Virus record (IMG/VR): IMGVR_UViG_3300010366_000043
Location: 1 to 30,368 of that record
Source: a virus
Lineage: Duplodnaviria > Caudoviricetes
Direction: 5' to 3' (one strand)
Length of the DNA stretch: 30,368 nt
Every line of letters begins with the position of its first letter. The stretch's first letter is position 1. This document shows, piece after piece, positions 1 through 30,368 of this stretch. The translations under genes and the position numbers were made by a program. The notes beneath the pieces were generated by a model that had not been told where the DNA came from, made no database searches, and was given only the letters and a program-made list of their open reading frames with translations.

Positions 1-382
1 CCCCTTTACCCCGCCGTAGCTTTACATAAAATAGCAATTTTTACTGCTGCAATTTTATTAGGTACTTGCGGCATTTTTGGCAACGGCATTTGCCGCCACC
101 AGCGATCCGGCCCACCCCCGACATATCTATGAATTTTTTCCAATCCCCGATATAATTGAAATTTTTTCCAATTATTATGTAAATATGAAATTTAGACGTT
201 TATTAAGCTATTTACCCTAACATTTATCCATTTTTTACGATATTTTGACGTTTCTGCCGATGTCCATGCTAAAAAATTATAGCCTTTTGTGCCGCTACGG
301 TAGGCTAGTGCTATAAACCTACCTAAAAACAGGCCAACATTGCTAAACCCCTTATTTTATTAGCCGCTTACAAGCCTAAAGC

Positions 383-420
383 CGCGCCTAGTAGCTTTAC
401 TACCTAAGCTACTAGGCGCG
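383..420 (-). terminator. Perfect 15-bp hairpin ending the leftward operon (probable terminator)
   Basis: CGCGCCTAGTAGCTT (383-397), 8-nt loop, AAGCTACTAGGCGCG (406-420), 7 nt past the stop of ORF 428-724. The U-tail on the - strand is weak (GCTTT). Confidence 0.6.
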
Positions 421-427
421 TACTTTA

Positions 428-724
428 CTATTCCTCCCTTTTCCAGTTAGCCCATCCCCATCCTCTTTGATGCACTAATCCATGACAGCTATCGCATAGA
501 GGATTTACATCTAAAGGTCTTGAGTAATCTTCATGATGATAGAGAGTAGCTTTCCTGCCGCATATCTCGCAGGTAAGATCTGCTACTCTAGGAAGCTCTC
601 CATTCCTCACAGCTTTATTCACTAGATAGTTAGCTCTAACTTTCTCTGGAAATTTATCTATCCTATCCCTATCCCTCTCTCTCTTCCTATCCTTCTTCCT
701 TTTCCTTTTCTCCCATTCTTCCAC
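428..724 (-). CDS. HNH-type/Zn-binding endonuclease-like protein
   Basis: CEICG...HHEDYSRPLDVNPLCDSCHGLVH (CxxC, HH, CxxCH pattern of small phage HNH proteins). The GTG start has a GGAGG RBS and overlaps the upstream stop. Confidence 0.7.
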   Translation of the reverse strand: MEEWEKRKRKKDRKRERDRDRIDKFPEKVRANYLVNKAVRNGELPRVADLTCEICGRKATLYHHEDYSRPLDVNPLCDSCHGLVHQRGWGWANWKREE

Positions 725-1769: not shown

Positions 1770-2450
1770 CTAACGTCCCACATCCCAAATCTTATGTAGG
1801 ACGTTCCCACCTTCAATTGCTTCCTCTAAGATATCGATGGGGATCTCTTCTTCTATTGCGTTCCTCGCCGTGAATGAATTTCCCACTAAAAGAAGCCAGA
1901 GCAGGGTCTTCTTAAGAAACTCTTCATCTTCCATCTTCACATTGACTCCTCTTCCCGCTCCCGTCCCCTTCCCCATGTATTTCAATATCCGTTCTGCCGT
2001 GTCTAAGATCGTAGGGCTGCGTCCCATTTCTACCAATTCCCCAAGTCCATCCGCTCCCAACAAGTTCCGAAGCCTCAGGATCCGCCGTTTCATACTTTCG
2101 GGGAAGCCCTTCGTATCTATGGGTAATCCATGTACTACAGCATCTAACCATTGTGCCGGAGTTAGCGACATGGTTTCTGCGTTGAGCACTACCCACAGAG
2201 CTGGAGCATCTAAGTCGAATTCTCTATGAATTGCCACTGGGACTTCCTCCATATCTAATAGCTTCGCACAAGCTAATCTTCTGTGTCCATCTGCTAAGAT
2301 TAGATCCCTGTTCAGCACCAATGGTTCCAAGATGCCATACTTCTGTATCGACAGTAGCAATCCTGTGAGCGCATTACGATTGGCTCTTCTTGCCGGATTG
2401 AATTCTGCGACTGTGATCTGTGATATCTTCAACGTTGTGAATTCTGGCAT
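1770..2450 (-). CDS. ParB/Srx N-terminal-domain protein
   Basis: FNPARR...SIQKYGILEPLVLNRDLILADGHRRLACAK is the ParB-N signature. An AGGAGG RBS precedes ATG 2450 (the track starts at 2489). Confidence 0.85.
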   Translation of the reverse strand: MPEFTTLKISQITVAEFNPARRANRNALTGLLLSIQKYGILEPLVLNRDLILADGHRRLACAKLLDMEEVPVAIHREFDLDAPALWVVLNAETMSLTPAQWLDAVVHGLPIDTKGFPESMKRRILRLRNLLGADGLGELVEMGRSPTILDTAERILKYMGKGTGAGRGVNVKMEDEEFLKKTLLWLLLVGNSFTARNAIEEEIPIDILEEAIEGGNVLHKIWDVGR

Positions 2451-2501
2451 GACAGTTAGTTCCTCCTGAGAACTAAAAATGGAAAACAAACAATTAGAAA
2501 G

Positions 2502-9258: not shown

Positions 9259-9528
9259 TTAGTTCCTTGATGGCCCCATGTGGAGAAGGTCATTCTCCGT
9301 AGATATATAGGTAAGATCTTCAAGTGATATCTCCAATGCTATAGAAGGATCTACGCAAGATAGCCGATGCGCCGCTAGGATGAAGGAATTTCCAACTTCC
9401 ACCTGTTCTAACGGTAAGGTAGCCTTCTTACGATTGTGTCGTAAGATGAACAGGACTTCTTTGGCAATATCTTCTATTTCCCTACTGGACATCACTTGGA
9501 TATCCAGTAGGAACTTCAGGTCTCTCAT
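9259..9528 (-). CDS. Hypothetical protein
   Basis: 89-aa ORF translationally coupled between the ThyX-like gene and polA. Confidence 0.6.
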   Translation of the reverse strand: MRDLKFLLDIQVMSSREIEDIAKEVLFILRHNRKKATLPLEQVEVGNSFILAAHRLSCVDPSIALEISLEDLTYISTENDLLHMGPSRN

Positions 9529-10331
9529 CGATCCACTCTTGTGCTTTTGAATGTGCGGTTCTCTTCCAAAGCCCAGGGGAAGTCACACTGATCTTCCACT
9601 TTTTCCCATCCTTGATAAGTGCATTTGTGACCATGAATAGGATCAAAGGTCTTCTCGCAACTTATCTTAATATGGGGTGAAAGCCAGGGACATTTCTCGA
9701 TGAGTCGTACACCCATAAGTCGGAAGAGAGCTACCGTCTCTGGGTAGAACATGCTGCACGCGCGATAAGCATACGTGTTAAGGAACTCACTTAGGGGATA
9801 TTCGCAAATGATGTAGGTTTCAGTGGCAATAGGACATACGGTGCGAGCATCTTGCATGGGAATACCCATATCGGCAAGATCTTTGTAGGCTTGCCGAGCT
9901 GTCCAAATTGCTACTTCCCAAACAGAACGTGCATCTTCGTTATCAGCAATTTCTTGCGGCATACGCACATTAAAATTTCCCATATCCGCATATCGCATCG
10001 ATTGCTGTGCGAAGCTGGCCTTCCGTGTGCGTACTAATTGATGTGTAACGCCTCTGCTAACGCCACTACATTCAAACGCTACGGTGAACCATTCCAGAGC
10101 TTGATTCAATCCTCCTTTGAACATATCAGCTACCATTGCTTCATCTACTTCATCGTCAGCAATAATACTTCCTCTTACTGCAACGCTGGCTTTGCTCAGA
10201 ACTTTAGCCATTGTTTCTTGTTCAGGCCACAAAATACACTTGACTTCAAGGTTCTCGTAGCCAATGTCCGTTCGTCCCGTTTGACCAGGAGCAACGTTGA
10301 AATCATTGCTCCCCCGACGTGACATGTTCAT
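9525..10331 (-). CDS. thyX: ThyX-like flavin-dependent thymidylate synthase homolog (non-canonical motifs)
   Basis: GVSRGVTHQLVRTRKASFAQQSMRY (ThyX RHRx7SxR motif with H->T) and QDARTVCP. The usual GHxSxxEH reads GLNQALEW. Confidence 0.85.
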   Translation of the reverse strand: MNMSRRGSNDFNVAPGQTGRTDIGYENLEVKCILWPEQETMAKVLSKASVAVRGSIIADDEVDEAMVADMFKGGLNQALEWFTVAFECSGVSRGVTHQLVRTRKASFAQQSMRYADMGNFNVRMPQEIADNEDARSVWEVAIWTARQAYKDLADMGIPMQDARTVCPIATETYIICEYPLSEFLNTYAYRACSMFYPETVALFRLMGVRLIEKCPWLSPHIKISCEKTFDPIHGHKCTYQGWEKVEDQCDFPWALEENRTFKSTRVDR

Positions 10332-10332
10332 G

Positions 10333-10692
10333 TTATTTACCTCGGTAGTTGTTATCGTCTAGCACGAAGATTGATATAACTGCTTGATTGATAATATCTA
10401 GGAGCTTATCCCTGATATTATCTCTATACTGTTGTCCGTAGTCATCACTATCGTAAATCATGAATTTTAGGCGGAACACGTCCCCGATAAGTGTAGATAC
10501 TGTGCCGATAAGCCCTAGAACTACGAACGCATCTTTGTACATCTTGTTGCGTTCTATGAAAGTTTCTTTGGCTTGCTTGATTACTTCGTCGTATTGATGG
10601 CTTCTATCTTTCTTTGGGGAGATAAAGACGATGCCAGAATTACTAGAAGTTTCATTCCACTGTTCCTTGAGCTCTCTGTCTCTGTTTGCCAT
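10333..10692 (-). CDS. Nucleotide modification-associated domain 1 (Nmad1/DUF1599)-like all-alpha protein
   Basis: Pattern FIERNKMYKDAF..LG..G...LIGDVFRL...IRDKLLDIINQAVI resembles DUF1599 (KNxDYG...DKxxRL...DTLxDLxNY). The neighbouring genes fit this call. Confidence 0.6.
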   Translation of the reverse strand: MANRDRELKEQWNETSSNSGIVFISPKKDRSHQYDEVIKQAKETFIERNKMYKDAFVVLGLIGTVSTLIGDVFRLKFMIYDSDDYGQQYRDNIRDKLLDIINQAVISIFVLDDNNYRGK

Positions 10693-11653
10693 AAGTCTTT
10701 TCCGATTGATCGTGGATAGCCCCTGATATATCCCAATGAGTGTAATTGGGATCTAACAGGAAGATATTATTGGCGGTAAAGGATATAGATGTGTTGTAGG
10801 GTTGTGGATATACAAATACAGGAATCCCACAACCCGCATAGCGTTTGATGAGAACAGGGTCATCTTCAATAGCTATGACCATATTGTTCTCTTGGAGCTT
10901 GCTGGCCGCAACGATACGTTCATCGTAACCAAAGTGTAACTCATCTGGAAATATATCGTGGACTTTTAGCCATGTCCACGTATCTCCCCAGATTCGTTTG
11001 TAGGTGGTGTATGGACGTGCGGTATGCACAATGATGTACCAACCTATGCTCTTTAGCGTATTCATCGCCATTTTAACAGCTTTGATGCTGGGAAGAGTCG
11101 TATAGCCCCCATCTCGCTCAAATTCAATTTTGGCTTGATTATACGCCCGATAGTTCCAATTGTGGTTGATGTCCATGTGTAGACCGATCTCTTCCTCTTT
11201 GATATGAAGAGTATCAGCCCATTTGGTCTCGGCAACCCAGGACATGAAGCCTTGTCGGAAGTCAGCCACAACGCCATCTAAGTCTAGCATAACGATACGG
11301 CGGCGTATCACAGGACTTTGGATTTCTTGCCGGAGTAGTTGAGCTAGGATTTCACCTTTTAGCTCCATAGCATCTAGCATATCTTGTTCTGTGAATCCCA
11401 TGATTTGCCACATGCTAAAGATGTATTTGGTAAGATCAGCAAGTTCTTCCTTGATGTTGGGGCCAAAGTCCTCTACCGATTTCACATGATGCTTACGCCA
11501 TCCAGCTTGCTCAATGAGCTGACCTAGTTGTGCGGTCATACCGTGAACGTAGTTTTCCATCCAGTCAGAGCTTGACATGAAACGTTGCTTGAACATTTCA
11601 TCATTGTACTCTTCTTGTTTGTCCCAAACTTCGGATAAGGTTGGTGAACTCAT
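10652..11653 (-). CDS. All-alpha NTP pyrophosphatase (MazG/dimeric dUTPase-like) fused to HAD 5'-nucleotidase-like domain
   Basis: N-terminal GWRKHH...NIKEELADLTKY (EExxD); C-terminal HAD motif I DLDGVVADF, motif II HTAR, motif IV IEDD. Confidence 0.8.
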   Translation of the reverse strand: MSSPTLSEVWDKQEEYNDEMFKQRFMSSSDWMENYVHGMTAQLGQLIEQAGWRKHHVKSVEDFGPNIKEELADLTKYIFSMWQIMGFTEQDMLDAMELKGEILAQLLRQEIQSPVIRRRIVMLDLDGVVADFRQGFMSWVAETKWADTLHIKEEEIGLHMDINHNWNYRAYNQAKIEFERDGGYTTLPSIKAVKMAMNTLKSIGWYIIVHTARPYTTYKRIWGDTWTWLKVHDIFPDELHFGYDERIVAASKLQENNMVIAIEDDPVLIKRYAGCGIPVFVYPQPYNTSISFTANNIFLLDPNYTHWDISGAIHDQSEKTYGKQRQRAQGTVE

Positions 11654-12480
11654 AGATTCTTTAGAAACCTCGTAGTTTCTTGACGTGCCATGTGGCTAAG
11701 ATAGCCAGGGGAGAAAGCGGCGAAACGACCAACACGGAATAGATTACCTTCCACTCGTTCACCCCATTCTAGATCTGGGCAATCTGGGTGTAGATCTGGA
11801 GTTAGTCGTACATTTCCATCTTTACTGTCACGTTGCGCTTCGTAAGACATAATAAAGGTGGGATCTGTAATGCGGGAAGGATATTCCGTGTAAGACATTC
11901 CTTGGCTGATAGTTTGCCGTATCCAGGGAATATGCTCAAAACCGTTGTAGTAGACAACATGCTTATCAGAGTTGATAGTGTTGACATAGATGGGAATCTG
12001 GATAGCCCAGTTCTTTTGCATGTATTCTCTCTTGCGCTCTTGATTTGAGAATGTTGCGATTACAGCAACACGGTTTCTTTTCAAGTCATCTATGTACTCA
12101 TTACTTAACATCTGAGATTCTCTCTTGCGAGGAATCAAGCTCCAGAGGATAGTTTTCATTTCCTCATAGAGATAAAGCTGCTCTGAAACTGCCGGAGCTT
12201 GTTGAAATCTTTTGTGCGCGCTAGTCTTACGCTTTTGCGCCCACTGGTTAATCGCATATTGATCAGGTGTTCCAATTAACACGCTGACGACATGGGTAGG
12301 AGGCCAGGGGATTGGAGTTTCATACATGAACACCGCACCAATAGGATTGGCGCGACTTGTGTAGATAATTTCTATTTCCTCTGGCTGATAGTTGGCGTCT
12401 AGGCAACCCCAGAAAGCAAAGATAGAACTAAGACCGCCACCGATAATACTAATCTTGGGGTTAAGGTCAGTAGGACTCAT
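11650..12480 (-). CDS. FAD/NAD-binding Rossmann oxidoreductase-like protein
   Basis: N-terminal ISIIGGGLSS dinucleotide-binding motif. The C-terminal NLFRVGRFAAF resembles the end motif of UDP-galactopyranose mutase/amine oxidase-type flavoproteins. Confidence 0.7.
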   Translation of the reverse strand: MSPTDLNPKISIIGGGLSSIFAFWGCLDANYQPEEIEIIYTSRANPIGAVFMYETPIPWPPTHVVSVLIGTPDQYAINQWAQKRKTSAHKRFQQAPAVSEQLYLYEEMKTILWSLIPRKRESQMLSNEYIDDLKRNRVAVIATFSNQERKREYMQKNWAIQIPIYVNTINSDKHVVYYNGFEHIPWIRQTISQGMSYTEYPSRITDPTFIMSYEAQRDSKDGNVRLTPDLHPDCPDLEWGERVEGNLFRVGRFAAFSPGYLSHMARQETTRFLKNL

Positions 12481-12927: not shown

Positions 12928-13440
12928 TTAGAACTTAGTATCTTCCATTTCCTCAGGAAGGGTTGCCGTGGAATCTTCATCATCGTTGTCCCACGATTCT
13001 ACGTCATCGTCGTGAAACCCGTTGCTTGGGGTTTCCTCGTCGGCGGACATGTTGAAAACATTGTGGATGCTATCGGCATCTTTCTTAGCCTGCTCAGGTG
13101 TAAGAGGAGATTTGATAACATTCTTCGTGCGCCCTTGATAGGTGTCTTTGCCAACTTGCGCCCAGAAGGTTTTACCCTTGAGTGCGCGTGAGCTAATACT
13201 TCCCGTAGTGGGTGCGCCTACTGCATCCAAGAATTGTCCAACCATCGGCATGGACTTCTTGGTCATGGTGAGGGTGTGCCAAATCTGTACGCCAGTCTCC
13301 TGACCGCGCTCGTCCAGTACGGAGCAGGTAAGATTGACATACGGATTGCCGTTGGTGCTAGTTCGGTCTTCGGTTTCTGTAACGCGGATCTTGTAAATAC
13401 CGTCATCCAAAAGTCCAACACGTTCTAATGGGATGTTCAT
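12928..13440 (-). CDS. Single-stranded DNA-binding protein (DUF669-like OB fold)
   Basis: LLDDGIYKIRVTETEDRTSTNGNPYVNLTCSV is typical of DUF669; acidic tail ending in F; directly downstream of a Sak4-like ATPase. Confidence 0.75.
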   Translation of the reverse strand: MNIPLERVGLLDDGIYKIRVTETEDRTSTNGNPYVNLTCSVLDERGQETGVQIWHTLTMTKKSMPMVGQFLDAVGAPTTGSISSRALKGKTFWAQVGKDTYQGRTKNVIKSPLTPEQAKKDADSIHNVFNMSADEETPSNGFHDDDVESWDNDDEDSTATLPEEMEDTKF

Positions 13441-14240: not shown

Positions 14241-14322
14241 AGTTTGTCTCCTTAGATGCTGCACGAAAGCGGGACTTCCCAGGACTGTTGGCCGGAGGTG
14301 CTCGAATCCTTCTCATAGCGCA

Positions 14323-14721
14323 TTAACTCCATAAGCTAAGAACCTGACTTGGGTAGAAACGGTAGAAATCATAATCTTCAGGGATTACCGTTCTGTTGAA
14401 CTTAGTAAGTTCTTTCCTGAAGAATGCAACGGCAATGGAACTACCAGGATGCTTGTTGGCGATGTAATATCCAATGAGTATGTTTACGATGCCCGTACCC
14501 GTAGGAACAAGAACATCGGCATCAGGATCATAATCATTGAAGGCTTCGCTAATTTGTGCAGCAAGATCAGCTACATCTGTAACAAAGCCATCTGTAGCAA
14601 ATTCAATCTTGTTGCAATAAGGTTTTAGAGCTGAATATCTAAATCCTGGCTTCGCGCAAATAGCTTTGCGGAAGATGGGGTTTTCTAGTCTTTTTACTTC
14701 TGCTGCTTGGGTCTGGTTCAC
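14323..14721 (-). CDS. Hypothetical alpha/beta protein
   Basis: 132-aa ORF; the GTG start overlaps the helicase stop; contains YDPDADVLVPTG. Confidence 0.65.
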   Translation of the reverse strand: MNQTQAAEVKRLENPIFRKAICAKPGFRYSALKPYCNKIEFATDGFVTDVADLAAQISEAFNDYDPDADVLVPTGTGIVNILIGYYIANKHPGSSIAVAFFRKELTKFNRTVIPEDYDFYRFYPSQVLSLWS

Positions 14722-16409
14722 TGTAGTATTTCCTTTAACATTCCAGTTGTCAGCTCTTTAACCATGCCAACACGATAATCCAGTAGGCTATGGACGAGAT
14801 GATCAATCGTAGGGCGACCATCTTGATACACGGATCTAAAATGTACGACATTAGGAGATTCCACAGTACCAATCCTACGTATACGGTAAAGGCTTTGGAA
14901 ATAATTACTATCATAGTTTCTTTCCGGATAGAAGGCTGTTCTGGCCGCTGTGAGGGTATGACCAAAGCTACCAGTCTGCATATTTAAGATAAGGATCTTA
15001 TTGTAGCCTTCCTGGAAATCTTTGATCATCTTGTTGCGTAGTTCAATGGGCGTATCTCCAATAATTTTACCGATGCGTTGGTCTACCATTCTACCTAGAA
15101 ATTCTTCTAAGAAATATGCTGTGCGAGTGAAGCTAGTCCATACGAGCCAGGGGCCAGGATAGATCTCCATAAGTTCTGGTAAGGATGTCCATTTGTTGCT
15201 TTCGTTTTCCCCGCCAAGTAACATGGGATTGCTACTTACTTGAATAAGACGTACAACCTTTGCTAGATGGTTGGTAACTGTGATGACGGTGCGATCTCCT
15301 GTTTTTCCATCTAGAAGAACGGTTCGTAGCTGGTCGCTGAGTTCTTTGTACGCCTTTTCTTGCTTGGGCGTCATGGGTACATCTATTTCCTCAAACAGCC
15401 ATTCTGGTATGTCTAACACCTCGCTTTGACTACGAGCAAAGTAAACATCCCTGAAGCGTTCCTTGATTTTTTGCTCTGCATCTTTCTTATTGGCTATGAC
15501 CTGATTGCCCCAGGTTGTAGGATTCACCATACAATACTCTTGAGCAAAACGCCAATAGGAAGAATAGGCTTTGGGTTTAAGGATATTAAACTGGCTCCAC
15601 ATATCGTCTAGCATACGATTGGCCGGAGTTCCAGTTAATTCCCAAACTCTGGATATTCCCTTAGCTAGATTTCCAATTGCTCTTGTGCGTTTGGAATCTC
15701 TAGTTTTATAGAGGATACTTTCATCCAGTATAAGTAAGTCAAATTTCTTACTTACTAAGGTAGGAACACTACGGGTTGCAACTTCTGGATTAGTAATCAC
15801 CCACAATATCTGGTCTTTGCGTTGTGGGGTCATTTCATCTATTGTAGCTTTCTTGCCGCGATGTATAATAATGTGATGATCGTGAAGGGAACCTGTCCAC
15901 TTCTCGATTTCACCTTTCCACATATACAGTAAGGATAACGGAGCTACAACTAAGATGCGCTGAACTTGCGGCCACAACTGTTCTGCTGCTGTGATGCTCG
16001 TTAAGGTCTTGCCGAGACCTGGGCTAAGAGATAGCATACTGCGAGGACGTTGCATGAGGAATCCAGCACCTTCGCGCTGAAATTCAAAGAGGGGTAGGTT
16101 GGGGATTACTGGGAGCGGGATTACTGTACTTATTTCCTTGCGCCATTTATTAACTTCTGGCGCAAGCATCAATTGACCTAGATTATCGCGAAGCCAGTGA
16201 ATTGCTTCAAGGCTGGCTGATGCACGATAAATGGTTCCTAATTTTTCATTGAAGATCTTAAACCACATGCTACTTTCTAGTAGCTTGAGATTTGGGGAAG
16301 TTTTCTTCGGTATAAAAAATAGGAAATCCTGCTTTGTTTCAGGCAGGAAGACGATGCGTCCAACATCTTGAGGAGCTGTTGGGATTACTGCGGCACGCTT
16401 TTCTAGCAT
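14718..16409 (-). CDS. SNF2-family (SF2) helicase/translocase
   Basis: PGLGKT (I), VVAPLS (Ia), LILDES (II), LTGTP (III), GHTLTAA (V), QSLYRIRRIG (VI). Confidence 0.9.
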   Translation of the reverse strand: MLEKRAAVIPTAPQDVGRIVFLPETKQDFLFFIPKKTSPNLKLLESSMWFKIFNEKLGTIYRASASLEAIHWLRDNLGQLMLAPEVNKWRKEISTVIPLPVIPNLPLFEFQREGAGFLMQRPRSMLSLSPGLGKTLTSITAAEQLWPQVQRILVVAPLSLLYMWKGEIEKWTGSLHDHHIIIHRGKKATIDEMTPQRKDQILWVITNPEVATRSVPTLVSKKFDLLILDESILYKTRDSKRTRAIGNLAKGISRVWELTGTPANRMLDDMWSQFNILKPKAYSSYWRFAQEYCMVNPTTWGNQVIANKKDAEQKIKERFRDVYFARSQSEVLDIPEWLFEEIDVPMTPKQEKAYKELSDQLRTVLLDGKTGDRTVITVTNHLAKVVRLIQVSSNPMLLGGENESNKWTSLPELMEIYPGPWLVWTSFTRTAYFLEEFLGRMVDQRIGKIIGDTPIELRNKMIKDFQEGYNKILILNMQTGSFGHTLTAARTAFYPERNYDSNYFQSLYRIRRIGTVESPNVVHFRSVYQDGRPTIDHLVHSLLDYRVGMVKELTTGMLKEILQ

Positions 16410-16456
16410 TGTCTAGCCTTTCATGGCGTTATAGTTTTTGTGTAGGGGTAAAGTTA

Positions 16457-16485
16457 ATTGTACCACAGGTGCGCTGTAGGGGCAA
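16457..16485 (-). promoter_or_regulatory. Sigma70-like promoter for the replication arm
   Basis: - strand TTGCCC-N17-TACAAT with extended -10 (TGTGG-TACAAT), about 50 nt upstream of the helicase start. Confidence 0.7.
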
Positions 16486-16541
16486 ATTTGCTGTAGGTAT
16501 ATAAAGGTATACCGCCAATACTATATTTTGCGTATTGCCGC

Positions 16542-16570
16542 TTTACAAGCACCATATTTTGTGGTAAGCT
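16542..16570 (+). promoter_or_regulatory. Sigma70-like promoter for the packaging/structural arm
   Basis: TTTACA-N17-TAAGCT with extended -10 (TGTGG-TAAGCT), about 45 nt upstream of terS. Confidence 0.65.
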
Positions 16571-16613
16571 GTACATAAGCAATCTTTTAGAGCTTTAGGA
16601 AGGGACGTAGATT

Positions 16614-17096
16614 GTGGTTCCTCAGTCAGAGTACCTCGAAGAAAATCTTGTGGTTTTAGCTCTTAGAAGTCAGTCTGGTAATGTAGCTCTAGCAGCTATG
16701 GAATTAGGCTTGAGTCGAGGCGAGCTATATACCTACATCATTAATCATCCAGATGTGGCAGAAGCTAAAAGGCAAATCAAAGAATCCGTGAAGGATATGG
16801 CTGAAGATTTGCTTGTATCTGGTATGAAGACAGATAACACTTTGCTGATGTTCTTCCTTAGAACTCAAGCTAAGGATAGAGGATACGGCACAGACAATAG
16901 ATCTACGATTAACAATAAGGTTGAAGTTAATGTAGATGCTCGCTCCTTGATTGCCGCCATGCAAAAAGGAACTAAGCTCATCGATGCCAAAGATGAAAAC
17001 GAAAATGATGAATCTGAGGAAGGCGGAATTTTCCCCATCACAGAATTTTTCGCTGACCGAGATGGAAGCGGAAGAACTGGGGAAGTGCTACCGTAG
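16614..17096 (+). CDS. terS: Terminase small subunit (HTH)
   Basis: GNVALAAMELGLSRGELYTY (HTH) and MFFLRTQAKDRGY; lies immediately upstream of terL. Confidence 0.75.
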   Translation: MVPQSEYLEENLVVLALRSQSGNVALAAMELGLSRGELYTYIINHPDVAEAKRQIKESVKDMAEDLLVSGMKTDNTLLMFFLRTQAKDRGYGTDNRSTINNKVEVNVDARSLIAAMQKGTKLIDAKDENENDESEEGGIFPITEFFADRDGSGRTGEVLP

Positions 17097-22144: not shown

Positions 22145-22197
22145 TCTACTAACATCAATTCACTAGAAAAATTCAGGGGGGATGAGGGAGATATCAC

Positions 22198-23208
22198 ATG
22201 ACTATTCCAGTTTATATGCCAGTGGCTCGGAAGAATCCAATTCCGTATGCTAAGATGGCTCCTGGGTTTGATTTGGCTAAGAACGTTCGGGAGGTTCACG
22301 GCAATCCAAATGTCATCTATGAGTTTATTGGTACAGATGAGTTTGGGCCGGAATGGTATGAGCGCATTCGTTTCGAGGTTAATGCAGGTCGCTTGGAAAC
22401 ACCCATCCTCTATACGCCAATCTATGATGAAGTTGTTGATGCCAGCTTGCCGGAAGTTCAAACTATTAAGAACTGGGGATCCAGCGGCGTCATCTTCGAT
22501 GAAGTTTTCGAAGGTGGTGAAGTTAAATTTATCGGGATTACTACGGCGACAGCCAGTGTTTCTCAGCGTCAGTTCGGCGTTGGGCTTGAATATGATAAGA
22601 AGTTAATCATGTTCAATCAGCTTTGGCAGCTCGCTCGTATGGAACGTGAGGTTGGGCGAGCGTATAATGCGCTTCAGAATCATCTGCATCTTTCACCGAT
22701 CTTGACTTATGCTTTCGCTGCTGCCAATCAAACTCCGGCCAACACGACAGGAGCAACGGCAACTGAGAAGCTATTTGCTACCATTGAAGCGGGTATCGTT
22801 CATGCTCAGACAGATACCACTAATCCTCGTATGGGGCCGTATGTTCTTTTGGTGCATCCTTCCAAAGCCTTTGCCGTTCAGCGTGCTTTGACGCGTGTTC
22901 CGCAAGTTACCTTTGCTCAGGATAGCGATATTGGGTCTTATATATCAGCTATTGTGGGCTATGCAGGTTGGTCGGGAACTCGCGGTAAGAAGGCTGTGAC
23001 CTATGCGGGTTGTTCAACAACTAAGGGCTATCTCATCAATACGGTTTATCGCGGTGAGGATTTCCTTAGCTTGGTGAAGCAACCACTGGAATCGGCGCAG
23101 GGTAATGCTGATGTCACACGTTTCATCCAGAATCAAATCGTATGGGATGTGTGGTTAGGTGTCTATGCTAATGTTCTACGCTCGACTGAGGAATTAACCC
23201 TGCCGTAA
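22198..23208 (+). CDS. Major capsid protein (HK97 fold, Mu gpT-like)
   Basis: 336 aa with strong RBS; EVFEGGEVKF...FGVGLEYDKKLIMFNQL E-loop/backbone pattern; LLVHP P-domain motif; synteny. Confidence 0.8.
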   Translation: MTIPVYMPVARKNPIPYAKMAPGFDLAKNVREVHGNPNVIYEFIGTDEFGPEWYERIRFEVNAGRLETPILYTPIYDEVVDASLPEVQTIKNWGSSGVIFDEVFEGGEVKFIGITTATASVSQRQFGVGLEYDKKLIMFNQLWQLARMEREVGRAYNALQNHLHLSPILTYAFAAANQTPANTTGATATEKLFATIEAGIVHAQTDTTNPRMGPYVLLVHPSKAFAVQRALTRVPQVTFAQDSDIGSYISAIVGYAGWSGTRGKKAVTYAGCSTTKGYLINTVYRGEDFLSLVKQPLESAQGNADVTRFIQNQIVWDVWLGVYANVLRSTEELTLP

Positions 23209-24196: not shown

Positions 24197-24657
24197 CTCC
24201 AATAGCTCTTGAGAATTTGATTGTTACCTATTTGAAGACAGATACTACCCTCACGGCAGATGCTCCTGGTGGGATCTATTGTTATACAGAGCTTGGACTA
24301 GTGGGCATCACACGTGAAGAAATGCCAGCATGTTTCGATTCTGATGGTCTCGTCCTGCCGTTGGTCGTGGTAAAAGCAAGAGCTCCTACAAATATCAATA
24401 CCATCGCATCCGAGAAAGAGCGCATCACAGGATTCGTACAATTTGTAGAATGTTGGATGTATCAGTACGTTGGATATGATCTTATTGAAATTATTGATAA
24501 TGATCTTCATAGAATTTTACATGAATATAAGTTTGATGGCTATACGGCTATCAAGTGGAACTATTGTACTGGCCCGACTGTAGATAATGGTGCGTTGAAC
24601 GGTGCTTCAGCTTTTATGAGAGATTTTATCATTCGAGGTGTTAAGAAACCTGTATGA
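24193..24657 (+). CDS. Tail terminator/tail completion-like protein
   Basis: LIVTYLKTDTTL...LPLVVV...FVECWMY pattern typical of SPP1 gp17/lambda gpU-like proteins; synteny. Confidence 0.55.
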   Translation: MTPIALENLIVTYLKTDTTLTADAPGGIYCYTELGLVGITREEMPACFDSDGLVLPLVVVKARAPTNINTIASEKERITGFVQFVECWMYQYVGYDLIEIIDNDLHRILHEYKFDGYTAIKWNYCTGPTVDNGALNGASAFMRDFIIRGVKKPV

Positions 24658-25820
24658 TTGATCGTCTTAATTGGATTGGCTACTATGCTGAAAATGGTGG
24701 CTATGGGAAGATGGCTTCCCGCTTTGTCAAAGCCCTCAAGACTTGGGGTATTGATGTAGCTCATATTACGGGCTGCGATCTGGAGAGACCGCAATGGATG
24801 CTTGATGAAATGGGTGTCAGTTGGGATAATCTGACTATCCTTAACAATGAGCCTCGTCGTATAGAGCATACTCCAGGAAGAAGATGGCTCTTCACGATGT
24901 GTGAGGGGGAAGTCTTATCGTCTTATGTGATCAGGAAAATCAATCGAGGAAATATAGATAGGATTGTCGTGCCGTGTCAATTTTGCGTAGATGTATTTCG
25001 CAAGAGCGGAATCAAGCATCCCATGTCTATCGTTTCTCTAGGAACTGATCCGGCAGAACATCTGCCTCGCAATACACCACGACCTGATCGTCCTTACACT
25101 TTCTTAACGATTGCTGATCGAGGAGATCGTAAAGGTTGGACTGAAGCCTTTGATGCTTTCTATAAAGCATTTGGTGGAAAAACGACCGGAGATAGAGATG
25201 TTGCTTTAATTGTAAAATCATTAGGTTTTGGAAATAATCTGGCTAAATTAATCTTAAAGCATAGTGGTGATGATATGGATAAGCGAGTATCTTGGGATAT
25301 TAGCTTCTATCCAAATATGGCTGATCTATATTCTAAAGTAGATTGCGTTGTCTTGCCGAGTCGTTCTGAGGGATGGGGGATGCCTCATCGAGAAGCGGCG
25401 ATGCAAGGTCTTCCAGTTATCTTGCAGAAATATGCTGGATTGGATGATGGGCATACGGGAGAATGGGCTATCTGCGTAGACGGCGGCAGGATGCAGGAAG
25501 TTCCTAAAAAGGGACAGCTCGGAGGCGGTGGAAATTGGCTCGTAGCAGATTCCTATAAAGTTGCAGAAGCTATGCGCTGGTGCTATGAAAATCAGGGAGC
25601 TGCTTCTGCCTTTGGTTATTCTGCTCATCACTGGTTGGCCGCACATCAAACTTGGATGGATGCTGCTGCCGAACTGATTAATTTGATGCACGATGAACTA
25701 GGATGGGAACATGCCTCTAACCTTCAATATACCTCCCATGCGAATGATGGAGTCAGTAGCTCAAGAATTTCTCTATACGACCTTGCAGTCGGGCAAGAAC
25801 GCGGCGCATCAGCAAGCTAG
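24654..25820 (+). CDS. GT-B fold glycosyltransferase (GT4 family)
   Basis: GGYG, RKGW and VLPSRSEGWGMPHREAAMQGLPVI (ExxGxxxxE motif). Confidence 0.9.
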   Translation: MIDRLNWIGYYAENGGYGKMASRFVKALKTWGIDVAHITGCDLERPQWMLDEMGVSWDNLTILNNEPRRIEHTPGRRWLFTMCEGEVLSSYVIRKINRGNIDRIVVPCQFCVDVFRKSGIKHPMSIVSLGTDPAEHLPRNTPRPDRPYTFLTIADRGDRKGWTEAFDAFYKAFGGKTTGDRDVALIVKSLGFGNNLAKLILKHSGDDMDKRVSWDISFYPNMADLYSKVDCVVLPSRSEGWGMPHREAAMQGLPVILQKYAGLDDGHTGEWAICVDGGRMQEVPKKGQLGGGGNWLVADSYKVAEAMRWCYENQGAASAFGYSAHHWLAAHQTWMDAAAELINLMHDELGWEHASNLQYTSHANDGVSSSRISLYDLAVGQERGASAS

Positions 25821-26711: not shown

Positions 26712-27239
26712 ATGGAACAGCTACCTCCCACCAGTGGACTTGAATGGCGACGCAATCGCGAAGAGGGGGAGCTCATTCAGCTCCCCTATAGCGGCAAGTT
26801 TGTAAAGATTAGGACAGTACGACCTGATCAAATGCTTCGTCTTGGATCTATCCCCAATCCGCTTGCCGCTATGATGGTTAATATGATATACGGCAACCAT
26901 GATAGTGATAAGATGGAAGCTTTCTTATCCACCGCAGAAAGTGTTGAAGCGGCAAACGAGATGCTGGAAAGCCTTCGGATTGTCTGTACCGCTGCTTTCG
27001 TTAATCCAAAGATCGTAGCAAATCCAATAAAAGACGACGAGATTTCTATAGATGACATTGAATTGAGCGATCGTAGCTACATTTTCCGGCTGAGCTTTGT
27101 CCCAGCCGAAGCATTGAAAACCTTTCGTTACGGATCGCCATCAGATGTGGAGGTTATCTCAAATGGCGCGGGAGACCCACAGCCGTCCCTCGCTCCTAGT
27201 GGGAATGACGGATCCGCTGGAGTCGTATCTATTAGATAG
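26712..27239 (+). CDS. Tail assembly chaperone (gpG-like)
   Basis: Lies between tail tube and TMP; IQLPYSG...AAFVNPKIV...DDIELSDR. Confidence 0.75.
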   Translation: MEQLPPTSGLEWRRNREEGELIQLPYSGKFVKIRTVRPDQMLRLGSIPNPLAAMMVNMIYGNHDSDKMEAFLSTAESVEAANEMLESLRIVCTAAFVNPKIVANPIKDDEISIDDIELSDRSYIFRLSFVPAEALKTFRYGSPSDVEVISNGAGDPQPSLAPSGNDGSAGVVSIR

Positions 27240-27537
27240 CTGCGTCGTAACTTTTGGTATCATCATGGAAAATGCGCTCAATGAGCGCGAGCAAGTCGGG
27301 CCTCCAGACAAGCATGATTGGAAGCCAAAATATACTCTATCACAATTATTAGATAGTAAGTTTTATCTCCCTGATCCTTCCAGACCTGCCATAACGAGCA
27401 GGTTTATGAAGGAATCTGATCTTCCGCCTTTTCAGGGTGGTGTTCTTCAAATTCTTGCTCTGGCTGCCGATAATACCAATAAAGGTATTAAGACCTGGCG
27501 TTATGTTCATCCCGAAAACGATGGTGAAGCTGCATGA
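27124..27537 (+). CDS. Tail assembly chaperone C-terminal frameshift extension (gpT-like)
   Basis: The +1 frame relative to 26712 is open from 27118 to the TGA at 27535-27537 and is joined by ACC-TTT-CGT at 27120-27128. The track ORF starts at ATG 27145. Confidence 0.65.
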   Translation, partial: FVTDRHQMWRLSQMARETHSRPSLLVGMTDPLESYLLDSCVVTFGIIMENALNEREQVGPPDKHDWKPKYTLSQLLDSKFYLPDPSRPAITSRFMKESDLPPFQGGVLQILALAADNTNKGIKTWRYVHPENDGEAA

Positions 27538-30368
27538 GCGACAATATCTCGATTGCAAAAATTGACGTAGATGCTAGTGGCGTCATCAAAGCGGCAAAAG
27601 ATATAGTAGATGCTGGAGCTACTGCACAGAAGGCTTTTCAGACCTTAGCTTCTGGCGTTAAGACCATTGAAAATAATTCTAAAGCAGCGGCAGATGCAGC
27701 TAAAGCAGAACTTGTTACAGTTCAGCAGACTGAAGCTCGCAAGACGATGTCTCGGCAAGCCAGTTCCAAAGCGAAGATTGCGCTGGCCGAGAGTGAATCT
27801 AAAGTTGCGGTCAATAATTCCAAGCAAGAGCTAGAGCAAGTTGAGCAAGCTGAAAAACGTAAGACGCAGCTTGCTAAGACAAGAGCTGATCAGCGTCTTG
27901 TTAATACAAAATCTGCTGCCAAGCAAGAAGAGTCAATCTTAAATGCTTCTCTAAGAGCCAAGCAATCTGCAATGGATCAGGAAGAAGCTAAAGAGCTTTT
28001 GATGCTCAAGGCTTCTATTCGCGCTACGCAAGATGCGGAAAAAGCCAAGCAAACGGCACAGAAGCAAACATTTGATCTTTATATGGCTCGTATGAGTCAG
28101 GTCAATGCGGCTTCTGCTAGAGGCGGTATTAAGACAGGTCAAACTCTGGGTGGATTGGGCGGCGGAGCTACGGGAGGTGGAGGTGGTGGGATTACGCCCC
28201 CAAGTCCTCCCGGTCCTCCATCTGGTGGTGGGCCGAGTCAGGTCGGTGGATTCTTTCAAGGAGCTCAACAGGTCGGAGCTGGTCTTGGCGGTAATATCGC
28301 GCTGGCTACAGGTCTTGCCGCTTCGATCGCTACGCTTAACATTCCTGGTGTTATTGTCAATCTAGGGCTTTTAGGAAAAGCCTTCGTTGATACAGGAAAG
28401 GACATCTTTCAAGCTGGCATTGCTGCAGAAAAGACGGCTGTCGCCTATCAACGCCAGATTGTAGCGGCAAGCAATCTTGCTGGAAGTCAGCGAAATCTTG
28501 CCAAGATCATGGATGCTTATGTTGAAGCATCTGGCGGTGCAGTAGATACGACGGAAGCTTTGACTAGTGTAATCCAGCTTCAAGCTCTCGGTTTCGCTAA
28601 GAGCGCAGAATCTACTAAAGAATTTGTCACCGCTGCTAGAGGTATTTCTCTGGCAATGGGCAAGACAGTTACAGATGTAGCAAATGAAATTACGCTTGCC
28701 GTTGGGAACTTGAGTACTCGCCGCTTGGATCAATTAGGTTTGAGCATCCAAGAGGTTACAGATAGAACAAATGAGCTGCAAAAAGCGCACGTTGGAATGT
28801 CTCGACAGATGGCTTTTGAGCAAGCTATCTTAGAAGCTGCGGATAAAAAATTCGGTGATTTGGCAAAGTCTGCAGAAGGCCAGAAGTCACCCGTTGAGCG
28901 CATGGAAGCAGATTGGAATAATTTTTATCTGACGATGGCTAATCTAGTAGCTCCTGCCGTCGATAAAGTAGCAGATGCTTTGGATAAGCTCATTAAAAAA
29001 GCTACAGATAAAGGTCTTCAGCAAGGCTTAGAAAATATAGCCAATACGACACTGATAAGAGTAAATCAAAGCCCTGAGCAAGCTAGGCAATATGGAACTG
29101 AAACGTTAACGACCGAAGCTACGAAAGCGATGGTGGATAGGCTTACACAGCAGATTGCTGAACTGAAGAGAATTCAAGCTCTTCCTCCGGCTCAACGAGA
29201 TCAGTATCCAGATTTTGCGGGCGGCAAAACTCCGCCTGTTCTAGCTGAACTTGAAAAAGAATTGGAGATGTTCTCCAATGATATGGCACGTCTCAATGCT
29301 CGTAATATGCTAGCTCAGAGTAAAATTCCTGGAGGACCTCAACTTCCCTATACGGAAGATCCAGCAAGACCTAGTGGAGCTGGCGGTGAAACTGCTCTTC
29401 AGAGATTTGAGCGTGAAAATCAAGATATGATTATAGAGCATCATGATAGAGAGCTATCTATCAATCGTGATGCTTACAATGATCAATTAGCCGCTGACGC
29501 TGACTATCATCAAGCTGTAGAAAAATCTAATAAAGCCTTTAATCAACAGCAGGAAGAACAGCTTGAAGATCATAACAAGCAAATGGCTAAGATGGAAAAG
29601 GATTATCAAGATGAAATAAAGAAAGTCAAGCGTGATGCGGCAGAGCAAGCTAAGAAAATGGAGCGTGATCTAAACACGCAAATCGATAAAGAAAGACGGG
29701 ATGCTGCTGCCGAGCAGAAGCGTTGGCTCCGTGATTATAATGATACTGTCTTCCGCAATAATAGAGATGAGAAAGCGGCAGAAGCTCGCGTCAATCGGGA
29801 TTACGGCGAGCAAGTCGCGAAAGAAAATACAGATTATAACAATAAAGTAAAAGATATAAATGATAAGTTCAAAGAGGATCAATTAAAAAGAACGAAGGAT
29901 CATAACGAGACGCTGATGGAAGCGGCTGGCCGTCTAGATGCGGTTGCCGTCTATGCAGAACAGCGTAGGTTCTTAAAGGAACAAGCTGAAGCTAAAAAAG
30001 CGCGTGATAAAGATCTGGCTGATGAAAAGAAGCATCATGAAGATACGGTAGCTGAAAATGAACGTGAACATAAAGAGCAAATCAAAGATATGCAAGACGC
30101 TAATAATCAGCGCAATATCGATGAGAAAGCTGCTTATGATCAGCGTGTGTCAGATGCACAAACGGCACTCAATCAGCAAATAGAAGATCAGAAAACTGCG
30201 CTGGCTACGCAATTAGACGATGCGAAGAAGGCAGATGATCAGCGTCTTTCTGACATGAAGACAGCGCATGATAATCAGAAGACTGAGATGGATACAGCTT
30301 TCAATGATCAAATCACGCGTCAGCAGAAGCACCATAATGATGAGTTGACAGAGCTGGATACGCAGCAC
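27534..30368 (+). CDS. Tape measure protein (partial, runs off window end; absent from ORF track)
   Basis: ATG 27534 overlaps the chaperone stop (ATGA). It reads MSDNISIAKIDVDASG..., is Ala/Lys/Gln/Glu-rich and helical, and is still open at the end (...ELDTQH). The frame was spot-checked, not fully translated. Confidence 0.88.
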   Translation, partial: MSDNISIAKIDVDASGVIKAAKDIVDAGATAQKAFQTLASGVKTIENNSKAAADAAKAELVTVQQTEARKTMSRQASSKAKIALAESESKVAVNNSKQELEQVEQAEKRKTQLAKTRADQRLVNTKSAAKQEESILNASLRAKQSAMDQEEAKELLMLKASIRATQDAEKAKQTAQKQTFDLYMARMSQVNAASARGGIKTGQTLGGLGGGATGGGGGGITPPSPPGPPSGGGPSQVGGFFQGAQQVGAGLGGNIALATGLAASIATLNIPGVIVNLGLLGKAFVDTGKDIFQAGIAAEKTAVAYQRQIVAASNLAGSQRNLAKIMDAYVEASGGAVDTTEALTSVIQLQALGFAKSAESTKEFVTAARGISLAMGKTVTDVANEITLAVGNLSTRRLDQLGLSIQEVTDRTNELQKAHVGMSRQMAFEQAILEAADKKFGDLAKSAEGQKSPVERMEADWNNFYLTMANLVAPAVDKVADALDKLIKKATDKGLQQGLENIANTTLIRVNQSPEQARQYGTETLTTEATKAMVDRLTQQIAELKRIQALPPAQRDQYPDFAGGKTPPVLAELEKELEMFSNDMARLNARNMLAQSKIPGGPQLPYTEDPARPSGAGGETALQRFERENQDMIIEHHDRELSINRDAYNDQLAADADYHQAVEKSNKAFNQQQEEQLEDHNKQMAKMEKDYQDEIKKVKRDAAEQAKKMERDLNTQIDKERRDAAAEQKRWLRDYNDTVFRNNRDEKAAEARVNRDYGEQVAKENTDYNNKVKDINDKFKEDQLKRTKDHNETLMEAAGRLDAVAVYAEQRRFLKEQAEAKKARDKDLADEKKHHEDTVAENEREHKEQIKDMQDANNQRNIDEKAAYDQRVSDAQTALNQQIEDQKTALATQLDDAKKADDQRLSDMKTAHDNQKTEMDTAFNDQITRQQKHHNDELTELDTQH

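Follow-up and report, generated by a model that had tools for sequence, protein, structure and literature searches.

A conserved GA/TC-free promoter island and gene block in a tailed phage and its relatives, possibly linked to thymidine modification at TC

The divergent promoter region and the other purged intervals

The window, by which we mean the whole analysed stretch of 30,368 nt, represents a 30-kb piece of a tailed phage genome that was detected in sequencing runs of soil metagenomes. Its leftward replication/nucleotide operon and its rightward virion operon both start from a single intergenic interval, between a helicase gene and the probable gene of the terminase small subunit, terS (Table 1). 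A dinucleotide scan of the window showed that GA and TC are both absent from exactly 162 nt of this interval (16422-16583), as the preliminary description had reported. From the base composition of the interval itself 18.9 occurrences are expected, and the minimum in 20,000 shuffles was 5. The longest GA/TC-free run in 100 order-3 Markov genomes was 69 nt (mean 50), and outside the three islands of the window the next-longest run is 32 nt. The preliminary description had also recognized that long runs lacking other dinucleotide pairs, if common, would speak against its reading; an all-pair run scan found no other pair with an expected count below 0.01 anywhere in the window. CA and TG occur in the island at a normal level (10 and 13). 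The shuffles, the Markov genomes and the scan of other pairs exclude chance or base composition as the cause.

Table 1. Features of the window discussed in the text
Feature	Position	Strand	Basis
Edge of large GA/TC-free block, cut by contig end	1..104	.	scan, shared motif
A/T-tract spacer, normal GA/TC (16 observed, 18 expected)	105..263	.	counts
Second GA/TC-free island, directly downstream of leftward operon	264..432	.	scan
Divergent ThyX-like flavoprotein, predicted dUMP-modifying enzyme	9525..10331	-	family match, motifs
Conserved helical protein without family match	10333..10692	-	family scans
N-terminal helical domain fused to HAD/NT5C phosphatase	10652..11653	-	NT5C and phrog_415 matches
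FAD-binding protein, UDP-galactopyranose-mutase-like by low-confidence model	11650..12480	-	model, homology
SNF2-type helicase, first gene of leftward operon	14718..16409	-	family matches
GA/TC-free island over two back-to-back sigma70-type promoters	16422..16583	.	scan, simulation, relatives
Predicted promoter of replication/nucleotide operon, TTGCCC-17-TG-extended TACAAT	16457..16485	-	promoter scanner
Predicted promoter of terminase/structural operon, TTTACA-17-TAAGCT	16542..16570	+	read from sequence; not in scanner list
TC closing the island, about 6-7 nt after inferred start	16583..16584	+	sequence and relatives
Probable terminase small subunit, first gene of rightward operon	16614..17096	+	precedes terL; weak HTH_8 match
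GT4 glycosyltransferase among head-tail genes	24654..25820	+	family match

The island was described at first as covering both promoters and as ending at the flanking ribosome-binding sites (RBSs). The leftward promoter is indeed listed by the scanner, whereas the rightward one was recognized by eye and by its conservation. As for the ends, the description fits the helicase side, where the predicted 5' leader of the leftward operon is purged up to about the RBS, but not the terS side, where the island stops just past the inferred start, about 14 nt before the RBS.

Among the related contigs spanning the helicase-terS interval, 11 are distinct, and in 10 of these the island is uninterrupted, with a length of 142-172 nt. 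Several of the 11 form near-identical pairs, so that the independent lineages are fewer than this count. The exception is G011 (L043), with three GA/TC inside the promoter island. In the nine relatives aligned, identity to the window across the island is only 50-66%. The two back-to-back promoter-like sites are conserved among relatives: the geometry of the leftward promoter is common to 10 sequences including the window, and the rightward one keeps its -35 hexamer and spacing. Counting from the start of the -35 hexamer, GA/TC first reappears on the terS side at a distance of 39-42 nt, about 5-7 nt past the inferred start, in all nine intact cases including the window (in G001 this distance was anchored by hand).

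The promoter island is not unique in the window, since 264-432 (169 nt) and 1-104 are also GA/TC-free. The former holds a 14-bp perfect hairpin at 384-419, and its counterparts in the relatives, of 166-172 nt, hold hairpins of different sequence, all recognized by eye. A third island, of 178-179 nt, precedes another gene in G003, G004, G007 and L050; the corresponding interval shows no purge in G005 and only a partial depletion in G001 and L056. The other intergenic gaps keep the step: 47 GA/TC were counted at 1060-1273, 16 at 105-263, 10 at 14265-14322 and 10 at 22145-22197. The interval 1060-1273, purine/pyrimidine-skewed and repeat-rich, is in this respect the opposite of the islands, and reads belonging to other organisms accumulate around 1240-1290. 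The spacer at 105-263 is a candidate genome-end or packaging signal. Beside it, at the near edge of the block described below, a conserved G-rich motif ending in GGATC (window 95-130, with equivalents in G001, G002, G004 and G005) is a candidate cos/pac signal. GC-rich GA/TC-free runs of 57-125 nt also occur in the tape-measure gene (G003 25526-25582, G004 22358-22438, G007 13202-13326), where they probably reflect Gly/Pro-rich coding.

In the window, TC holds 25% of T. The core genes show no avoidance of TC/GA, with 165 TTC against 148 TTT codons and, at codon junctions, 578 GA against 584 expected and 709 TC against 632 expected; the purge is therefore due to local selection. A genome-wide mutational loss of TC/GA, with the step retained only by coding need, was considered and rejected, as synonymous sites are undepleted and other gaps keep the step.

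A GA/TC-free gene block in the relatives

Because a 16-nt motif (window 59-74, minus strand) marks the same block edge in G001, G002, G004 and G005, positions 1-104 are the start of a large block. This block has zero GA/TC over 4721 nt in G001 and 4783 nt in G002, and spans 4624 nt with three GA/TC breaks in G005. A search of metagenomes with a protein of the block retrieved nine new loci, some of them strains of the same virus, and all nine lie inside GA/TC-free blocks, which reach 599+4765 nt. Compared as DNA, the G001, G002 and G005 blocks show almost no alignable sequence, and their other biases are not the same; their ORFs encode conserved proteins with AAGG-type RBSs, one family showing 51-73% identity across four genomes. 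Being free of TC/GA, the block encodes proteins without aspartate or glutamate: six ORFs with 879 codons contain no Asp/Glu, TCN, TTC or ATC codon. One family demonstrates that this constraint follows DNA position and not protein need, because it keeps both residues outside the block and loses them inside: the member at G001 30092-30580, outside the block, has ordinary Asp/Glu, while its homolog among the G002 block ORFs (32% identity, E 8e-7) and the in-block member of G003 (E 8e-4) have none. The feature is real, conserved and larger than first seen.

Past the block the purge fades with distance. Over the first 1.3 kb, TC on the coding strand reaches 0.46-0.70 of its expected count in all four genomes, and optional GA 0.35-0.55 in three of the four and 0.93 in G001; both are back near 1 by 3 kb, the downstream small genes grading to normal. 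The block of G011 is relaxed, with 10-16 GA/TC per 500 nt against about 60; there (L107 1-2500) about 20% of the normal GA/TC remains, most of it within repeatedly used words like GTCG, CTCT and CTCC. The block amounts to about 8% of a genome of about 57 kb, as estimated from G004 plus the block length, and its position ahead of small early-type genes suggests that it is read first. A promoter regex found no promoter inside four blocks, no known RNA family reached gathering score in the blocks of four sources, and the block proteins gave no informative match; a model of one of them (pLDDT 59, best Z 5.9) resembles a generic helical hairpin and is likewise uninformative. Directly past the far edge lie arrays of 3-5 short repeats containing TC/GA, of the CCAGATCRGA or AAAACAAATCTCG types (G001 28874-29060; G003 2168-2330; L056 3207-3450). 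Outside the block, between early-type genes of G005, a Twister-P5 ribozyme match was observed at L025 16716-16788 (47.9 bits, E 1e-6). A literature search, with most subscription journals and supplements outside its coverage, found no account of motif-purged promoters or of Asp/Glu-free gene blocks.

Candidate modification genes and comparison with other phages

Four neighbouring minus-strand genes form the candidate modification cluster. Canonical ThyX thymidylate synthases carry an RHRX7S motif and the His of an SxxEH motif, both with roles in the enzyme. The ThyX-like protein carries RTR and QALEW in place of the RHR and SVLEH of M. tuberculosis ThyX and lacks the His of the SxxEH motif; it thus departs from canonical ThyX in both motifs, and its score against TIGR02170 (72 bits) is below the cut-off of 87.9. 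The N-terminal helical domain of the phosphatase looks pyrophosphatase-like by eye only. With the FAD protein, the top 10 Foldseek matches are all mutases (E 2e-5 to 9e-4) for a weak model (pLDDT 50, TM 0.24-0.28); it has 276 aa against about 365 aa for mutases and no sequence match in the PDB. Its homologs include an actinophage 'oxidoreductase' family (E 8e-13; 126 records). The GT4 gene is present in every relative covering its region, and its product may have virion proteins or DNA as substrate.

Other routes to modification were looked for. In the window no ThyA-type hydroxymethylase was detected, the only match being to Thy1/ThyX. A 5-hmdU DNA kinase and aGPT-PPlase gave no family match in these incomplete genomes, where a crude P-loop regex picked only Sak4 and the endolysin. 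A variable slot (window 1770-2489; L025 5604-6626) is occupied by a ParB-like gene in the window and in G002 and by a PAPS-reductase-domain gene in G005, neither being detected in G001. Neither gene was retained as the cause, since they are not common to all relatives (G001 has no ParB match), and the ParB/5mYOX pathway (PMC13229309) was set aside, no 5mYOX family match being seen.

The nearest measured case with an RTR-type ThyX is that of Pbunavirus. In the virion DNA of F8 and 14-1, about a quarter of T is reported to be replaced by a sugar-type derivative (in F8 a sugar-alcohol derivative) in a TG motif (PMC12191111, whose section 8 assigns no genes to the pathway). The ThyX of F8 has the same THQLVRTR motif as the ThyX-like protein of the window (27% identity, E 3e-14), and F8 also encodes a HAD protein, a FAD protein and MazG. 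Both phages share an RTR-type ThyX with neighbouring HAD, FAD and pyrophosphatase-type genes, and in each the dinucleotide concerned starts with T and accounts for about a quarter of T. A HAD phosphatase stands beside ThyX in both, with a weak link to F8 gp57 (E 0.004), and the product of 10333-10692 shows a faint, non-significant likeness to the C-terminus of the same gp57 (E 0.008). The FAD protein matches F8 gp65 directly but weakly, at E 5e-4 over the C-terminal 23 columns, and indirectly via the actinophage family at E 8e-13 and 2e-5. The differences are also clear: by an indirect test of context, the purged step here is TC/GA and not TG, F8 has no purged region (its longest CA/TG-free run, of 88 nt, lies in a stretch with one A), its virion is unrelated, and this phage has PolA instead of a DnaE-like polymerase.

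Among 12 cultured phages with related genes (RHph_Y65 being left out of the count) none has GA/TC islands and 10, F8 included, show no clear purged region, so that modification-type genes do not entail islands. The remaining two, which both carry FAD and ThyX homologs, show regions depleted of one T-first step, in their case CA/TG. In Wifcevirus ECO71P1 (OP172789, 64.5-66.5 kb, L109), about 2 kb of small divergent genes have 11-18 CA/TG per 500 nt against about 72 elsewhere; repeated promoter-like blocks were observed in the same region. Vibrio phage PVA7 (PQ582223; 39883-40280, 20832-20941) has CA/TG-free runs of 148, 120 and 110 nt, in a record whose stops inside ThyX and split genes are possibly sequencing errors. 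The ECO71P1 region differs from that of our phage in concerning TG instead of TC and in being depleted only partially (about 80%) over about 2 kb. Wifcevirus isolates are reported to resist the tested RM systems without known mechanism (PMC11990801). The BASEL collection includes Wifcevirus genomes (Bas98-101), of which Bas100 carries a FAD homolog.

The nearest ThyX proteins are those of actinophage clusters AE, BN, D, DV, DG and EF (Onyinye, with 49% identity, Yara, Troll4, Yikes, Anakin and others), which also share the homologous oxidoreductase (E 8e-13) and the phosphatase. GA/TC islands are absent in all seven of these actinophages (longest run 44-79 nt); four have a single CA/TG-free run of 98-130 nt. 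In Wollypog (NC_070760 22232-24500) we observed that one long run of 842 nt lacks TCA/TGA and another, of 731 nt, lacks AAG/CTT, and that GA/TC-free runs of 48-76 nt are clustered. For M6, ViI, phiW-14 and PaMx11, whose hypermodification is based on 5-hmdU, a TG/TC preference was inferred from restriction (PMC6449724, PMC8989533). The M6/ViI-type pathway uses a ThyA-type hydroxymethylase, DNA kinase and aGPT-PPlase, none of them detected here. In PMC6449724 the effect on promoters and the reading of hypermodified DNA by host RNA polymerase as infection begins are left for future study.

Which base may be marked, and why the step is purged

We consider it probable that T is hypermodified at TC and that the DNA which host RNA polymerase must read is kept unmarked by purging TC/GA, with a chemistry that we infer from the genes. 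The thymine of every TC step would carry a bulky, probably sugar-type group. Since the modifying enzyme would spare no single sites, TC/GA would have been removed wherever the DNA likely has to be free of the mark, namely from the promoters and from the 4.7-kb block, whose genes are predicted to be expressed first. In such a scheme dTTP would be swapped for a 5-substituted dUTP by the ThyX-like enzyme together with the HAD phosphatase and its helical domain, and a TC-preferring enzyme, for which the FAD protein or GT4 is a candidate, would add the bulky group. Host RNA polymerase would be unable to start on marked DNA and at first poor at passing through it. The block would be read first and its products would lift the barrier for the other genes, which the gradient would record, and promoters would remain purged because initiation stays sensitive to the mark. 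If this chemistry holds, the system is a variant of context-specific thymidine hypermodification.

The preliminary description had read the island as the footprint of a modification purged where host RNA polymerase binds. This idea gains from the retention of the island in diverged relatives, from the absence of avoidance in core genes and from the TG/CA-purged regions of two cultured phages, which match the Pbunavirus TG context. It is insufficient on one point: promoter binding alone does not explain a 4.7-kb gene block purged on both strands. The description had proposed testing whether islands coincide with promoters and occur together with the ThyX-like cluster or dpdA: the promoter island is intact in 10 of 11 related contigs, dpdA was not detected, and the 12 cultured phages with related genes lack GA/TC islands. 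Several observations count against the reading proposed here. An obstacle to elongation would be expected to act chiefly when it sits on the template strand, while the purge affects both; the long TC-dense operons must still be transcribed; no regex promoter was found in four blocks; and G011 combines a relaxed block with three GA/TC in its promoter island.

What fits a pure polymerase reading least is that genes are purged on both strands, and we therefore keep open another reading, compatible with it and rather unlikely in our estimate. Here the T modification would be the same, and lack of TC/GA would protect the large block from a host nuclease cutting modified DNA; the block would enter first and express inhibitors, and the rest would follow. 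In T5, the DNA of the first-step transfer makes up about 8% of the genome and has repeats at the far edge; it carries early genes and enters the cell first, and T5 DNA is unmodified. The present block is similar in its early-type position, its share of the genome, its constrained sequence and the short repeat arrays at its distal edge; it differs from the T5 case in the modification proposed. A nuclease would also account for a purge that affects both strands and decays with distance from the block, and END nucleases target hypermodified Pbunavirus DNA (PMC12191111). It leaves unexplained why promoter islands occur internally and why their edge keeps a constant distance from the start site. 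Moreover, G001, G002 and G005 assemble straight through the spacer, the contigs have no common ends, terminase matches at about 25% identity are uninformative on whether the block is an end of the virion DNA, and the block proteins gave no informative match to any known protein.

The evidence points to the T of TC and not to the G of GA. A guanine modification of the 7-deazaguanine type, made by a gene outside the window, is very unlikely. GA is its measured motif in CAjan and iggy (PMC7544227, PMC10484667), and in iggy runs of 152-171 nt lack GA/TC, a mild effect (E 2e-4 to 1e-3); two GA/TC-free runs (152 and 95 nt) lie at the end of its record within 738 nt lacking CGA/TCG (MN029011 59889-60626). 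However, CAjan, with the same dinucleotide pair, has no island (longest run 81 nt), and PF01702, the TGT/DpdA family, whose sensitivity to phage DpdA is unproven, was found in none of five relatives, all fragmentary records, one of 52.5 kb. FolE, QueD, QueE and QueC gave no match among the 66 proteins scanned (36 of the window and 30 from a subset of the relatives' ORFs). The preliminary statement that the window has no dpdA/que genes agrees with the scan of its 36 proteins, and the analogy drawn there with 7-deazaguanine is not supported. That the marked base is the C of TC, for instance a hydroxy- or hydroxymethyl-cytosine glycosylated by GT4 with the mutase-like protein supplying a furanose sugar, is improbable as well. 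The conservation of GT4 in the phage family and the use of a UDP-galactopyranose mutase with GT-B-like glycosyltransferases in the glycosylated hydroxycytosine pathway of phage RL38J1 (PMC13326640) would agree with it. The available part of that paper mentions no ThyX, GT4 sits here among virion genes and has no match in F8, and F8, with the same ThyX motif, modifies T (PMC12191111). We give only a very slight chance to unmodified DNA on which a host factor binding or damaging TC/GA steps (a deaminase, an ADP-ribosyltransferase or a silencer) acts until early genes neutralise it. Such a factor fits the both-strand purge, the gradient and the related clusters of 10 phages without islands, but accounts neither for the divergent ThyX cluster nor for the parallel of TG type seen in ECO71P1 and PVA7, has no known host, and finds no TT/AA excess in the promoter island or in the G001 block (O/E 1.09; 1.4 in G002 and 1.8 in G005).

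Returning to hypermodification of T at TC, selection would mark the DNA that must avoid TC/GA: the promoters as far as about +6, and the 4.7-kb block, from whose proteins both acidic residues have disappeared. The block proteins would then be candidate factors letting polymerase use marked DNA or blocking modification-dependent nucleases. More speculatively, and we offer it as a tentative picture, the block of about 5 kb may be an unmarked 'boot sector', read first, whose Asp/Glu-free proteins enable host use of a genome sugar-marked at every TC; promoters would be purged likewise, and the TC retained just past the late start would work as a switch responding to modification. From sequence alone, dinucleotide deserts would then tell in which context an undescribed modification sits. 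The TG/CA-depleted Wifcevirus region is a cultured test case and, if the reading is true, a cultured TG version of the system, and it points to candidate genes for the Pbunavirus modification. Among minor observations, the Atlas annotation of 14323-14721 as Pam3 gp32-like (at 0.89) is a lead only, and two overlapping tail-assembly-chaperone ORFs at window 26712-27537 show the usual frameshift arrangement.
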